Source of the DNA: a virus
Virus genome (UHGV): UHGV-1844214
Reading direction: 5' to 3' (one strand)
Length of the DNA stretch: 16,776 bases
In this document: positions 3,595 to 7,848 of the stretch, in pieces
How positions within the stretch are numbered: the stretch's first letter is position 1
Layout: each line of letters starts with the position of its first letter
Program-made: the position numbers and the translations under genes
Notes under the pieces: generated by a model
Seen by the model: the letters and a program-made list of their open reading frames with translations, nothing else
What the model was told of the DNA's origin: nothing
Databases searched by the model: none

Positions 3595-3773
3595 CTTGTT
3601 TTCCTCGCACGTTCTCTAAGCCACCGGATATCCCACAGGTGAGCCGTGTAGTTGAAGGTTTTTACGTCAGATTCTTTTGGGATTGGCTTGCGTTTATTTC
3701 TGGAGCGTTTCGTTGGAAGGTATTTGCAGTTTTCACAGATTATGTCGGTGATGCTTCGTCGCTGTCGTCTCAT
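3591..3773 (-). CDS. ninE: NinE (60 aa)
   Basis: Internal Met of the 90-aa ORF-track entry: [52 protein letters not shown]..., lambda NinE-like; ATGA overlap with the upstream methyltransferase stop. Confidence 0.8.
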
Positions 3774-4297
3774 GCCGCCCTCCTGACGCCCTGCCCGATC
3801 GCCATCAATGCCGCTTTGGATACGGTAGTAAACATCCGTCGAGGACTGATGAACGGTCGCCAAATCAGCAGCATGGAGCCTTTGCTGTTTCCCTTCTTCT
3901 CCAGCCCTGTCGATGGTTCGATAAAATTAATCCGTCCATCAGTGATAATACGAACTTCGTCAACACTCTCCAGAGCCTTGCTGAACCATCCGACAGACAT
4001 ATCCTCTGGCACAAGCATCACTACCGTCTGTCGTTGTTGTATGCACTGCTCAGCGGCTTTTTCCACCCACGGCCTGATATTGCTGTACGGTGGGTTATTC
4101 CAGATTGCACCGTGGCTTATCCACTCAGAATTTAGCGCGTCGTCGGCCTCAGTTAGCCAGTGAGCGCACAGAGCATTTTTGTCGCTCGCTGCCGAATCCA
4201 GCCAGAATCCAAACTCAATATCCAGTGCATCAAAAAGCCAAAGCGGCGTTTGCCAGCAGTCCTTGTCGTGTGCTGGCGTATTTGATTTGATAGTCAT
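3770..4297 (-). CDS. Phage Dam-like DNA N6-adenine methyltransferase (about 175 aa)
   Basis: Motif IV NPPY (..[15 protein letters not shown]..) plus upstream FGFWLD segment; sits where lambda has ninC/ninD. Start taken at ATG 4297 (ATGA overlap with the ninB stop, AAGGGAAGG upstream); an alternative ATG at 4324 lies inside ninB. Confidence 0.75.
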
Positions 4298-4740
4298 GCA
4301 GCCTTCCCTTTTCGTTGTGACCATTCATACTCTCGCCGGGAGTCATCACTCCACCGCACGTTGCGCTCTGAGCCGAACCAGAACATGATTTCGATAAGCT
4401 CAGTCATGCTGGCCTTTCGCATTTTGCTGGTACGCACTCCAAGCATAACAACGCCACCGTCGATACCAGGCGCACTTCGTTGCTCCAGTTTTTTGGTCTT
4501 AAGCCACAGAGCAGTGAACAGATCTTTCCAGTCCTCCGGCGCAAGTCTCTGTCCATGCCAAAGCACCTGACGCGAAACATCGTTCAGCATCGGCCACATA
4601 CGGTCATTCTGCGCTTTGCTCCGCTTGGGTTCTTTAATGTGGACTTCGTGAGGTGACTTGTCGTCGATGGGAAGTGAGAGTATTGCGTCTATGGCGTTGT
4701 TTCTGATTGCTTCGTTGCGAAGCATGTATATTTGCTTCAT
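4294..4740 (-). CDS. ninB: NinB-like protein (148 aa), divergent allele
   Basis: ORF-track protein shares the lambda NinB pattern (..DVSRQV.WHG..L..E.WK..FTA..K.......G..VV.G..TS.M.......L.E.....G.ER.V.WSD..R...EW...). Similar but not identical to lambda as recalled. Confidence 0.75.
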   Translation of the reverse strand: MKQIYMLRNEAIRNNAIDAILSLPIDDKSPHEVHIKEPKRSKAQNDRMWPMLNDVSRQVLWHGQRLAPEDWKDLFTALWLKTKKLEQRSAPGIDGGVVMLGVRTSKMRKASMTELIEIMFWFGSERNVRWSDDSRREYEWSQRKGKAA

Positions 4741-4762
4741 CGTTACCTCGACTTAATTCTGC

Positions 4763-5089
4763 TCATTGATACCCTCTCTCACTTAATCGCCTCCACGCTT
4801 CGTTAAACTCCTCTCTGGTTGCGCCGGATTTTCTTTCTTCAAACATCATGCATTCGCTGATGTCTCCCCATGACTTTGGTCGCTTTTCAGCGAACAGATC
4901 ATCCCATTCGAATACCCAGCGGCCTGATTTTCGGTAGTGGTAAATGGTCAGCCATGTTGTGCTGTTCGCTGGATACCCATAGAGAACTTCGACTTTTTGA
5001 TCACGGTCTTTATGCTTTTTCAGCAGGATAAAGCCAGCAACCAGTGAAGCTCCGGCAAGAATGATGATTGGAATTTGCCAGTCAGCCAC
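4763..5089 (-). CDS. Hypothetical membrane-anchored protein (108 aa, one N-terminal TM segment; GTG start)
   Basis: ORF track; hydrophobic N-terminus IPIIILAGASLVAGFILL then a charged soluble domain; GGAGGG 4 nt upstream of the GTG start. Occupies the lambda ren position. Confidence 0.5.
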   Translation of the reverse strand: MADWQIPIIILAGASLVAGFILLKKHKDRDQKVEVLYGYPANSTTWLTIYHYRKSGRWVFEWDDLFAEKRPKSWGDISECMMFEERKSGATREEFNEAWRRLSERGYQ

Positions 5090-5101
5090 ACTTCCCTCCG
5101 C

Positions 5102-5308
5102 TTAACTCACAAAACTCCACGCCATTTTTGCTACGACAACAGGCATAACACCGATAATCACCCACAGGAGAATGCTACCGAAAAGCACACCCACCATGTC
5201 TTTACCTTCGCCTACCAACCGGACAAAACTGCTGGCAACCACAATGAACGTCGCCACCATCCACATAGCACCGAGAATCCTCAATGCAGAGAAAATTAAC
5301 TCAACCAC
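5102..5308 (-). CDS. Hypothetical small membrane protein (68 aa, two predicted TM segments; GTG start)
   Basis: ORF track; two hydrophobic stretches (MWMVATFIVVASSFV and VLFGSILLWVIIGVMPVVV); GGAGAG 6 nt upstream of GTG; stop 12 nt before the next gene. Confidence 0.45.
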   Translation of the reverse strand: MVELIFSALRILGAMWMVATFIVVASSFVRLVGEGKDMVGVLFGSILLWVIIGVMPVVVAKMAWSFVS

Positions 5309-5322
5309 GATTTACTCTCCCC

Positions 5323-5355
5323 CAAATAAAAAGGCCTGCGATTACCAGCAGGCCT
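5323..5355 (-). terminator. Intrinsic terminator candidate downstream of the helicase gene (tR2-like position)
   Basis: Minus-strand RNA would form AGGCCTGC-(8-nt loop)-GCAGGCCT followed by TTTTATTT. Lambda has tR2 at the equivalent place between the replication genes and the nin region. Confidence 0.45.
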
Positions 5356-5383
5356 GCTATCAGCTCAGTGATGTAGATGGTCA

Positions 5384-6820
5384 TCAGAATCCTCCTTTCT
5401 TCTTGGACTGCGGTTCCTCGCGTTCACGGCGGCGCATTTCAGCAGACTGTTGGTCTGTGTCATAAATAGCGCCATTTGCCTGAATGCAATACACCGTGCC
5501 GGTATTGCCATGACGATTGAGACGAAGGATTAGTTCAGTTTCACCAGGTGGAACACTGTCATCAAAAGCGCCTTCACGATGGATCCCCACCCAATAATCG
5601 CAATCCTGTTCAATCTGCCCTGTATCTCGTGAGTCACTTGGTAATGGGCGTTTATTGGTTCGGCTTTCCAGTGCGCGGTTAAGCTGCGTCAGAAGCACAA
5701 CAACGCAATCAAGCTCTTTGGCAAGGTTCTTCAGTCCTTTGGTGATCATGCCGTAGGCAAGGTCGTTGCGATCGGCCTTCTCAGCGGTCATTAGTGTCAG
5801 GTAATCGACCAGAATCATGCCAACACATCCTTTTTCTCGCTTGATTCGACGGCTTTCGCTGACGATTTGAGCCAGAGATAATCCCGGCGTGTCGTCGATG
5901 TAAAGCAGGTCGATTTCACTCAAGCGATTGGCTGTTTCGATCGCCCTGTTGAAGTCACCATCGTAATCACCCTGATAGCCGTCATCAGCGTCATTTGTCG
6001 CCGGAAGGTAAAAAATATTCGGGTTAACACCTGACTTCTGTCCTACCAGTTTTTCCAGTATCTGGTCACCGGGCATTTCAAGGCTGAACATCAGAGCAGG
6101 CTTTTTCTCATGCACTGCGCAGTTGATTGCCATCTGGCTGTATAGTGTCGTTTTCCCCATCTTAGGGCGAGCGCCAATGACAAACAGAGAGCCTTTCACC
6201 AGACCTTTCGGTGACAGCATCCTGTCCAGCGATGGGATCCCTGTGCTCATTCCTCGCTGTTCGCCTGACGGGTCAAATCGCTTCTCAAGGTCGCTAACCC
6301 AGTCTTCCATGACCTCACCAAATGAGCGAAGGCCGCGACGCGATCCGGTTTTTGCATGGTCTGTCAGTTGCGTGAAAATCGCCTGAATAGCTTCGTACTT
6401 CTGCGTTGCAGTCATTCCGTTGCGGGAATAGAGCAATTCCGTCGCTTCAGTCATGCGGTTGATGGCGTAGCGTTCCATTGCGGTTTCACGAACCTGCATT
6501 GCATAGGCAACGATGTTTGCGGCGCTTGGCGTGTTCTTTGCGATCTCAGCGATATAAGCAAAACCGCCAACAGACGCCGTTAACGATTTACGCTCCAGTT
6601 CATCGAAAAGCGTCAGGCCATCTACTGGCTTTTGCTCCCGGTGCATTCTGGTTATTTCTTCGAAAAGGATTTTGTGTGGTCGGCTGTAAAATGAATCAGG
6701 CTTCAGCATCGCCAGAACTTTCTGGACGCGCTCACTGCTGTCATCATCCAGAAGCAATCCACCAATCACCGCCTGCTCTGCCTCGATGCTATGGGGCGGC
6801 GCATAAAAATTATCGGTCAT
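5384..6820 (-). CDS. Replicative DNA helicase, DnaB family (about 478 aa)
   Basis: Walker A GARPKMGKTT, DnaB-type N-terminal domain (HSIEAEQAVIGGLLLD), Walker B-like LILVDYL; replaces lambda P. Start taken at ATG 6820 (GAGGGTG upstream), overlapping the O-like stop by 11 nt; the ORF-track start at 6835 is a GTG. Confidence 0.85.
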   Translation of the reverse strand: MTDNFYAPPHSIEAEQAVIGGLLLDDDSSERVQKVLAMLKPDSFYSRPHKILFEEITRMHREQKPVDGLTLFDELERKSLTASVGGFAYIAEIAKNTPSAANIVAYAMQVRETAMERYAINRMTEATELLYSRNGMTATQKYEAIQAIFTQLTDHAKTGSRRGLRSFGEVMEDWVSDLEKRFDPSGEQRGMSTGIPSLDRMLSPKGLVKGSLFVIGARPKMGKTTLYSQMAINCAVHEKKPALMFSLEMPGDQILEKLVGQKSGVNPNIFYLPATNDADDGYQGDYDGDFNRAIETANRLSEIDLLYIDDTPGLSLAQIVSESRRIKREKGCVGMILVDYLTLMTAEKADRNDLAYGMITKGLKNLAKELDCVVVLLTQLNRALESRTNKRPLPSDSRDTGQIEQDCDYWVGIHREGAFDDSVPPGETELILRLNRHGNTGTVYCIQANGAIYDTDQQSAEMRRREREEPQSKKKGGF

Positions 6821-7709
6821 CGTGTTCACCCTCACGAACTTTCAGGTAGGTATTGTCGTTAAGCAGGAAATCAAATCCCTTTTTGTGCCAGACAGTTCCG
6901 CGTTGATGGTTTGGACGCTCTTCGAACATCCATCGGCAATTTTCGCCTACGTAGCTCAAATAATTTCTCCAGTCCTGCATCGTGAACCCATGCCCGTCAA
7001 GCTGGCGGGTTATCACTCCGGCTTTGCGCCAGAACGTTCGGATCTGGTTTTTACGCTTGTCATTCAGTGCGCGGATTCTTGGCGCTTCAGGAAGGATTTC
7101 GTGGTAAGCATCGACAACATCCTGACAGCTGACGGAAGGTTTTTTCTTGTCAGACTTTTTGTCTGCTGTGGCACTCTCTAATACGTCAGTATTAGAGATA
7201 ATATTATTATATTCTTTATCTGTGGTAATTTGCTGGTAATCTGCTGGTACAGCATTGCTTACAGGCATTGGTATTGCTGGCTTTGAGGTGGTAATTTGCT
7301 GGTAATCTGCTGGTACAAAATTTGACTGATAATCGTCATATTTCTCTACCGAGAAAACTGAGAATTTACCGTGTGAAACCCAGTCAATCATGCCGAGTTT
7401 TTTGAACTTTCTAAGCAGGTACTGAACGCGATCTGGTTTGAGTCCTGTTTCAAACGCCAGAGAGTTTCTACCGCCAAGTAGCTTCCCTCTGCCTACCAGA
7501 ATTTCTCCTGCGTCAGTCATTACATACTCAGGCGTATGCTTTGCTTTGAGGATTAAGTGAACCCACAGATGCGCAGCTTCTGCGTCCTTGTAAAACGGCA
7601 CATCCATAATTTTACGGTGCAGCAAGGCATACCCCTTACCGCTGCTTTGATGCGGTTGTTGTAGCCTTCTGGCCTCTCTGGCTTCGGCTAGATTAGATAT
7701 GTTACTCAT
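6810..7709 (-). CDS. Replication initiator, O-like (299 aa), with iterons inside the coding sequence
   Basis: Sits directly upstream of the helicase in the lambda O position; coding sequence contains direct repeats (peptide [10 protein letters not shown] encoded twice) and an adjacent AT-rich tract; conserved phage replisome-organiser-like C-terminus. Confidence 0.8.
7175..7317. repeat. Putative origin of replication: iteron array plus flanking AT-rich tract inside the O-like gene
   Basis: The 30-bp unit GTGGTAATTTGCTGGTAATCTGCTGGTACA occurs identically at 7222-7251 and 7288-7317, with degenerate TGCTGG copies between; each unit contains repeated TGCTGGTA sub-motifs. AT-rich stretch at 7175-7220. 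Confidence 0.6.
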
Positions 7710-7848
7710 GACCTTTCTCCTTCTGCATCAGCTTCACCTTTTCCAACTCAGCCCGGAATCGACCAGGCTGCTTGAAGCTGGACAGGAAGCGATCACGTAG
7801 TATGTGTTTGTGAATTTTGTCCTGGTAAGGACTGAGTTGTTTTGTCAT
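7702..7848 (-). CDS. Hypothetical small basic protein (48 aa), stop overlapping the O-like start
   Basis: Hand translation from ATG 7848 (AGGAG 5 nt upstream): [48 protein letters not shown]; stop TAA overlaps the O-like ATG (ATGAGTAA). Not in the ORF track (under 60 aa). Confidence 0.4.

Follow-up and report, generated by a model that had tools for sequence, protein, structure and literature searches.

In lambdoid phages the nin genes are tightly interlinked by ATGA overlaps, are non-essential and depend on N (PMC8022706; PMC10695390). Ahead of the first nin gene, lambda carries the terminator tR2 and a short frame known as NinA; NinA or gene 45 is annotated in P22, HK620, HK630 and Sf6, and in Sf6 and HK620 the same bases are annotated as tR2. 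The NinA initiation site has been described as "not weak" and is active in a lambda-derived reporter, and tR2 remains largely efficient under translation of the ORF, with a loss of about 10% (Li et al. 2015, PMC4824070). The window analysed here, the whole stretch of 16,776 nucleotides of the virus genome UHGV-1844214, contains a copy of this junction. On its sequence, the region belongs to the early-right (pR) operon of a lambdoid prophage, where it opens a typical mosaic nin region. We put at roughly 80% the probability that the locus consists of the tR2/NinA element followed by two independent, N-dependent accessory genes at the start of the nin region.

The gene order on the minus strand, as obtained from Pfam and PHROGs, is cII, an O-like gene, the DnaB-type replicative helicase, NinA/tR2, a 68-aa gene, a 108-aa gene, NinB, Dam, NinE, NinF, NinG, NinH, a phosphatase and Q, and the same operon annotation places an N-like antiterminator gene at 9525-9941. 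The helicase (5384..6835, minus strand; Pfam DnaB_C 3e-60, DnaB 3.5e-31; phrog_19) is the last replication gene of the pR operon, and the NinB/Orf recombination mediator (4294..4740, minus strand; PF05772, 2.8e-48) is the first canonical nin gene, lying 22 nt past the 108-aa stop. Between them, the preliminary description had reported three small ORFs with Shine-Dalgarno (SD) motifs and minimal spacing, and their coordinates were confirmed: a 27-aa ORF (5301..5384), a 68-aa ORF with a GTG start (5102..5308) and a 108-aa ORF, also with a GTG start (4763..5089), all on the minus strand. Neighbours overlap or nearly abut in each case. The helicase TGA and the ATG of the 27-aa ORF share one nucleotide, the A (TGATG), and not the ATGA that had been reported, and the stop of the 27-aa ORF overlaps the GTG of the 68-aa gene (cGTGGTTGA). 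The SD-like motifs are AAGGAGG before the 27-aa start, GGGGGAGAG before the 68-aa start and GGAGGG before the 108-aa start.

Hydropathy gives one hydrophobic segment in the 27-aa ORF, two in the 68-aa protein and one, N-terminal, in the 108-aa protein. The 27-aa ORF matches phrog_5907 (2e-17), and the homology search that had been proposed for the two longer ORFs returned full-length matches to phrog_1165 (E = 2.7e-35 over 1-68/68) and phrog_5903 (E = 9.1e-76 over 1-108/108), values that place all three ORFs far beyond chance. No Rfam family matched anywhere in the window. A consensus scan confined to sigma-70 found no promoter-like site on either strand in 4200-5800, so that the 68-aa and 108-aa genes are probably transcribed from pR under N antitermination. 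A moron was also considered for this region and set aside, since the same scan gave no promoter of its own.

The preliminary description had noticed a terminator-like hairpin within the 27-aa ORF, and this hairpin is indeed tR2 (5324..5355, minus strand). The terminator scan identified an 8-bp stem at 5355-5332 in which 6 pairs are GC, and TTTTATTT comes next at 5331-5324; the arms AGGCCTGC and GCAGGCCT enclose an 8-nt loop, with the TTTTATTT U-tract behind, and the RNA folding energy is -16.2 kcal/mol. The hairpin sequence is identical to that of lambda, P22, Sf6 and HK620, and the element as a whole is near-identical in lambda, P22, Sf6, HK620, HK630, mEp235, mEpX1 and Oslo, regardless of the flanking genes. 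Nearly the same bases were found in more than 100 further copies besides these named phages. Positions 5301-5384 hold a pan-lambdoid tR2/NinA element, the "boundary sequence" of the Sf6 annotation. A two-anchor NinA pattern scan of genome contigs recovered mostly lambda DNA contaminating unrelated assemblies, and is uninformative on diversity.

The 68-aa protein is modelled by AlphaFold2 as a helical hairpin (helices 2-33 and 38-67, pLDDT 90.6), and for the 108-aa protein the model gives an N-terminal helix followed by a beta/alpha domain (pLDDT 86). The hydropathy fits the earlier assignment of the former as a two-TM and of the latter as a TM-anchored protein. The 197 homologues of the 68-aa protein, all labelled "hypothetical", come from Escherichia and Salmonella, and many lambdoid and Stx prophages carry the gene. 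It encodes a conserved membrane protein in which certain glycine, tryptophan and proline positions and a loop (RLVGEGKD) are conserved, and which is under purifying selection (pooled pN/pS 0.52). The N-terminus is conserved across subfamilies with 54% identity, and the Emek variant of the gene has an ATG start. Several records of the family annotate a shorter, 52-aa version from an internal ATG, unlike the 68 aa found here, and the longer form is favoured by the N-terminal conservation. Our best guess is that this hairpin would sit in the inner membrane and act on the host envelope while the phage grows lytically. A class II pinholin was considered and discarded: two helices are present, but the C-terminus (KMAWSFVS) has no charged tail, its gene is placed before Q in the nin region, outside the lysis cassette, and no holin PHROG was matched.

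In the 108-aa protein a basic linker joins an N-terminal TM helix to a conserved soluble domain with the motif YGYP..TWLTIYH.R..W.FEWDDLF..RPKSWGD, and the protein is under purifying selection. This domain, which we call Sf6 gp46-like, is common to temperate lambdoid phages, DNA-polymerase-A siphoviruses, Shuimuvirus/T1-like phages and the jumbo phage Goslar, and the TM anchor is absent in the virulent phages IME207 and Goslar. It is phage-restricted, with 38 clusters at 50% identity among 1.84 billion representatives, and the search for a known fold relative found none. Relatives in other phage lineages adjoin DNA polymerase, helicase or lambda P genes, a position that could merely reflect placement in the early region. 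As a best guess, the protein would be a cytoplasmic, replication-cluster-associated domain that happens to have a membrane anchor in the lambdoid subfamily. On a more speculative reading, the domain would target a replication component of host or phage, or would work against a host defence, and would be tethered to the membrane only in the lambdoid branch. The functions proposed for this protein and for the 68-aa protein are drawn from two sources, architecture and gene neighbourhood.

The preliminary description had placed the cluster in the ren slot. In lambda, ren is followed by the same tR2/NinA element, and in mEpX1 and the E. coli prophage CFSAN018748 ren lies upstream of tR2, with the 68-aa (and 108-aa) genes downstream. 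Since ren is upstream of the element, the cluster occupies the tR2-ninB slot and not the ren slot, and none of the three ORFs gave a Pfam or PHROG match to Ren. Accessory genes of lambdoid early regions, for example ren and rex, sometimes mediate exclusion, and both proteins carry hydrophobic segments, as would be expected if they formed a superinfection-exclusion or abortive-infection module in the ren position that guards the lysogen. Such a module is nevertheless very improbable, given the co-occurrence of ren upstream of the same tR2 element and the independent assortment of the two genes: of 5426 E. coli genomes, 454 carry the 68-aa gene and 108 the 108-aa gene, but only 11 have the two side by side. 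Moreover, tR2 precedes the genes in the pR operon, which is repressed, and the scan gave no promoter-like site; none of the three proteins matched a PADLOC family at E<=1, and virulent phages have the 108-aa domain with no TM anchor attached. With no Pfam or NCBIfam match for the three ORFs either, the more general suggestion of a defence or toxin function is not supported; literature searches on the protein accessions and PHROG identifiers found no papers.

The distribution bears equally on the suggestion that the two longer ORFs form a pair. They are small, adjacent and on the same strand, which would suit a toxin-antitoxin-like pair or the fragments of a single disrupted larger gene, the latter a possibility that the preliminary description had itself raised against its reading. 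Stand-alone full-length homologues of each, with the same end positions, are however abundant: the 108-aa gene occurs without the 68-aa gene in Sf6, the 68-aa gene occurs without the 108-aa gene in HK630, mEp235 and mEpX1, and the 68-aa gene is also absent from Oslo. As there is no match to a toxin-antitoxin family either, and co-occurrence is limited to the 11 genomes, the pair and fragment readings keep almost no probability and are effectively refuted by the distribution; the two genes appear to be independent, non-essential accessory genes of the tR2-ninB slot. A narrower proposal concerns the 68-aa protein alone, which by analogy could be a lytic-phase membrane effector that blocks DNA injection by superinfecting phages in the manner of T4 Imm, or that modulates a host inner-membrane protein. 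Its small two-helix hairpin with the conserved positions and loop, its location in the early operon and its frequency in E. coli genomes and in lambdoid and Stx prophages are in line with such a role, but no characterised protein resembles it in sequence or fold and its pN/pS indicates only moderate constraint, and we regard this proposal as unlikely.

Whether the 27-aa ORF is a gene is a closer question. The hairpin arms and the U-tract read G-L-L-V-I-A-G-L-F-I-W, so that NinA is hydrophobic largely as a side effect of the sequence, and hairpin and U-tract are invariant in nucleotides among the hairpin-anchored copies. In addition, RefSeq PGAP leaves the ORF uncalled, Sf6 labels the same bases as boundary sequence and tR2, and by our estimate the chance of a 27-codon open frame alone is roughly 1 in 4. 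These observations would fit a stretch made up of tR2 and a recombination boundary, with an incidental open frame and no gene. Against this, the frame is open in 113/113 copies, which were chosen by an exact hairpin anchor and therefore sample variation outside the hairpin. On one side the frame borders on several distinct upstream gene ends, which fall into 7 sequence contexts, and on the other on the starts of downstream genes of at least 8 kinds; in every case the stop and start codons overlap or abut. An SD-like motif lies 6-10 nt ahead of the ATG in 7/7 unrelated upstream contexts. The 5' segment differs from lambda and P22 at few positions, mostly wobble positions, and codons 2-10 carry an excess of synonymous variants, with 7 of 18 possible synonymous and 6 of 63 possible non-synonymous changes observed (p=0.013, against p=0.92 and p=0.13 in control frames), a coding signal that is modest, with 13 variant alleles. 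As the initiation site is also active experimentally (PMC4824070), the non-gene explanation is doubtful, although it retains appreciable weight, and NinA behaves like a conserved translated linker in every mosaic context examined, as far as the sequences can indicate.

By analogy with lambda, unmodified RNA polymerase would stop at tR2, whereas N-modified polymerase would read through. Ribosomes that complete the helicase may start again on NinA, read across the hairpin and pass on to the 68-aa gene. The tR2/NinA element of about 75 bp is also the conserved junction where lambdoid phages exchange modules. The 68-aa and 108-aa proteins would then be delayed-early, N-dependent products of the lytic cycle, not expressed in the lysogen. 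More tentatively, and with rather low confidence, the Sf6 gp46-like domain could be an early-replication accessory factor and, separately, NinA could be a translated bridge by which ribosome traffic over tR2 couples the nin and replication genes.

The stretch is ordinary and already catalogued, and matters little as a discovery. Its value lies in correcting a plausible misreading: where lambdoid prophages show hydrophobic mini-ORFs behind their replication genes, these represent the tR2/NinA junction and shuffled nin accessory genes, and not a module for defence or toxicity. A start-codon mutant of NinA, taken as a conserved linker, would be informative on coupling through an intrinsic terminator, and the Sf6 gp46-like domain, a small family beside replication genes in temperate and virulent phages, is possibly a useful lead.

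Compared with known systems, the cluster has only the general neighbourhood after the replication genes in common with lambda Ren. Ren shows no homology to it, sits upstream of tR2 and, in some prophages, is found together with the 68-aa and 108-aa genes. T4 Imm and P22 SieA are small inner-membrane superinfection-exclusion proteins and, like the 68-aa protein, are small, membrane-embedded and phage-encoded; the analogy is functional only, with no sequence or fold similarity found between them. The closest likeness is to the tR2/NinA copies of lambda, P22, HK620 and phage 21 and to Sf6 gene 45 (bsq6): hairpin and U-tract are identical here, the element sits in the slot it has in lambda, P22 and HK620, from the last replication gene or ren to the first nin gene, and NinA of P22, HK620 and phage 21 and Sf6 gene 45 have the same overlapping frame of 24-31 aa. 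The differences lie in the flanks, with a DnaB-type helicase upstream and the 68-aa gene downstream, and in the C-terminal tail of NinA, which is VNRG here and GKS in lambda. The 68-aa protein is 82-94% identical to gp69 of the Stx2-converting phage 86 and to its counterparts in HK75, HK630, mEp235 and mEpX1, which have the same overlap with the NinA stop. Finally, the 108-aa protein is 98% identical over 107 residues to the product of gene 46 of Shigella phage Sf6, which lies in the same slot after tR2; in Sf6 gene 46 comes straight after NinA and before gene 47, whereas here the 68-aa gene is interposed and ninB comes next.

The window covers the part of a lambdoid prophage that holds its immunity and early genes. 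It contains a CI-like repressor (8579-9280, + strand), an N-like antiterminator (9525-9941, + strand) and, on the - strand, a pR operon in the order cII, O-like gene, helicase, three small ORFs, NinB, Dam methylase, NinE, NinF, NinG, NinH, metallophosphatase and Q, so that the nin region opens with the three ORFs. Published work portrays the genes of this region as delayed-early and non-essential, as linked by ATGA overlaps in an exceptionally tight chain, and as dependent on antitermination by N (PMC8022706; PMC10695390). The preliminary description was correct in its observation of close-packed small ORFs between helicase and ninB, but its interpretation is mostly not supported. On the - strand, the DnaB-type helicase (5384-6835) is followed by ORFs of 27 aa (5301-5384), 68 aa (5102-5308, GTG start) and 108 aa (4763-5089, GTG start), then by NinB (4294-4740). 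One base belongs both to the TGA of the helicase and to the ATG of the 27-aa ORF (TGATG), whose own TGA overlaps the 68-aa GTG (cGTGGTTGA); between the 68-aa stop and the 108-aa GTG lie 12 bases that include GGAGGG. All three have full-length matches to PHROG families, each uncharacterised (E = 2e-17, 3e-35 and 9e-76 for 27, 68 and 108 aa). The Dam-type N6-adenine methyltransferase (3770-4324, - strand; PF05869, 1e-64) sits between NinB and NinE, where it overlaps the end of ninB, and is a common insert of nin regions, for example in Oslo and VT2-Sakai. Between cII and the O-like gene, a 48-aa ORF (7702-7848, - strand) matches phrog_1913 (2.7e-28), labelled 'tail protein'; this category looks wrong for an early-region ORF, and its syntenic counterpart in an E. 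coli prophage carries the label DUF2740.

By its sequence, the 27-aa ORF corresponds to NinA/tR2. The suspected terminator-like hairpin within it is real, with an 8-bp stem (5355-5332) followed by TTTTATTT and a folding energy of -16.2 kcal/mol, and the hydrophobic G-L-L-V-I-A-G-L-F-I-W is what both stem arms, loop and U-tract encode. The surrounding ~75-bp sequence ATGACCATCTACATCACTGAGCTAATAACAGGCCTGCTGGTAATCGCAGGCCTTTTTATTTGGGGGAGAG is near-identical in lambda, where it sits between ren and ninB, and in P22, Sf6, HK620, HK630, mEp235, mEpX1, Oslo and E. coli prophages; the flanking genes vary while the element is kept. GenBank records call it ninA in P22, HK620 and HK630, terminator tR2 in Sf6 and HK620, and, also in Sf6, gene 45 ('similar to phage 21 NinA') and the mosaic 'boundary sequence bsq6'. 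Contigs 99.4-100% identical to lambda 39.5-41.2 kb (L130, L134, L136-L141, L143, L144, L146, L148-L151) were found in assemblies of Pseudomonas, Oceanobacillus, Bradyrhizobium, Psychrobacter, Pseudoxanthomonas, Nocardioides, Shewanella and others, with low coverage where titles give it (mostly ~1, 9.6 for L130); these look like lambda DNA contaminating public genome assemblies.

The suggestion that the 27-aa ORF is non-coding tR2-like sequence holds insofar as it contains the terminator, but the frame is most likely a translated linker that also houses it. The exact hairpin served as anchor for collecting 113 copies from IMG/VR and reference phages, and every one of them has an open frame (24-31 aa). 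Upstream, its ATG abuts or overlaps several distinct gene ends (seven sequence contexts); downstream, its stop does so with the start codon of at least eight kinds of gene, including ninB, the 108-aa gene and two 68-aa subtypes. A GGAG-type motif lies 6-10 nt 5' of the ATG in 7/7 unrelated upstream contexts. Variant alleles in codons 2-10 are enriched in synonymous changes (7/13 against 18/81 possible, p=0.013; control frames p=0.92 and p=0.13). In the same codons, five synonymous differences and one Ile/Val exchange separate P22 from lambda. In a lambda-derived reporter, the NinA initiation site was 'not weak' and tR2 efficiency only ~10% lower with the ORF translated (Li et al. 2015, PMC4824070). 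Together these data leave a purely non-coding reading as the less likely one. All these NinA/tR2 findings are already known.

Hydropathy and AlphaFold2 agree with the proposed topology of the 27-mer (a single hydrophobic stretch by hydropathy), 68-mer and 108-mer. The 68-mer is a helical hairpin (helices 2-33 and 38-67, pLDDT 90.6) and a real gene, with 197 homologues, only in Escherichia or Salmonella and every one labelled hypothetical, and a pooled pN/pS of 0.52. Two subfamilies share 54% identity, with invariant loop and Gly, Trp and Pro positions. Conservation as far as residue 1 supports the 68-aa start rather than the 52-aa version, from an internal ATG, to which several records are restricted. 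In HK620 (AF335538, L009:1643-1849), the ninA-ninB gap is unannotated and contains an intact 68-aa ORF belonging to the divergent subfamily (54% identity).

The 108-aa ORF is also a real gene, with an N-terminal helix (5-27), a sheet of four strands and a helix at the C-terminus (pLDDT 86); under the positive-inside rule, the basic linker KKHKDRDQK after the TM helix would make its soluble domain cytoplasmic. Its sole structural relatives are uncharacterised proteins of jumbo phage Goslar and Shuimuvirus IME207, both lacking the hydrophobic N-terminus, and tblastn detected the domain (residues 31-105) in ~88 virulent-type phage records (Seszw, IME207, NX263, HC6, Goslar). In several lineages, relatives are neighbours of replication genes: phage contigs of ~19-78 kb have one directly downstream of DNA polymerase A, another lambdoid prophage has one after lambda-P and a further ORF, and in IME207 it immediately precedes the helicase. 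This tie of the Sf6 gp46-like domain to replication clusters of temperate and virulent phages is the one lead with some mild novelty. Five homologues from E. coli, E. fergusonii and Salmonella (P0001, P0002, P0004, P0006, on 14 contigs, and P0011) are in-frame NinA::108-aa fusions of 133-137 aa stemming from indels in G/T runs after the terminator, which could be genuine or homopolymer sequencing errors.

A superinfection-exclusion or abortive-infection role had been proposed. No sigma-70-like promoter was found on either strand between 4200 and 5800, and no Rfam family matched anywhere in the window. Since CI represses the operon and the 68-aa and 108-aa genes come after tR2, they would, by analogy with lambda, be expected only in N-antiterminated lytic transcripts, which argues against protection of the lysogen. 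The proposed 'ren slot' was dismissed, since ren precedes tR2 in lambda (P, ren, NinA/tR2), mEpX1 and the E. coli CFSAN018748 prophage, and in the latter two the 68-aa gene follows tR2, with the 108-aa gene next in CFSAN018748; the two larger ORFs thus occupy the tR2-ninB slot.

Nor do the three ORFs form a module: no phage record holds them all, and among 5426 complete E. coli genomes the full arrangement occurs in only 11, against 454 with the 68-aa gene and 108 with the 108-aa gene. In the 68-to-108 junction GCGGAGGGAAGTGTGGCTGA, the tail of the tR2-to-gene-46 junction of Sf6 (GAGAGGGAAGTGTGGCTGA) recurs, as it would if the 68-aa gene had been inserted as a cassette. Both genes begin GTGGYTGA, and the GAGGGAAGT leader of the 108-aa gene is also found where the tR2 element ends in lambda and Sf6; cassettes may be exchanged by recombination at this short repeated junction (window 5090-5110, compared with L001:2630-2650). 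The cluster is an ordinary mosaic start of a nin region, composed of the known tR2/NinA junction and two independently shuffled, catalogued, uncharacterised accessory genes. In Sf6 the 108-aa gene directly follows NinA, in Oslo it follows a different primase-helicase, and HK630, mEp235, mEpX1, HK75 and Stx2-86 carry only the 68-aa gene of the two; the slot between tR2 and ninB is empty in lambda and holds both genes in the window.
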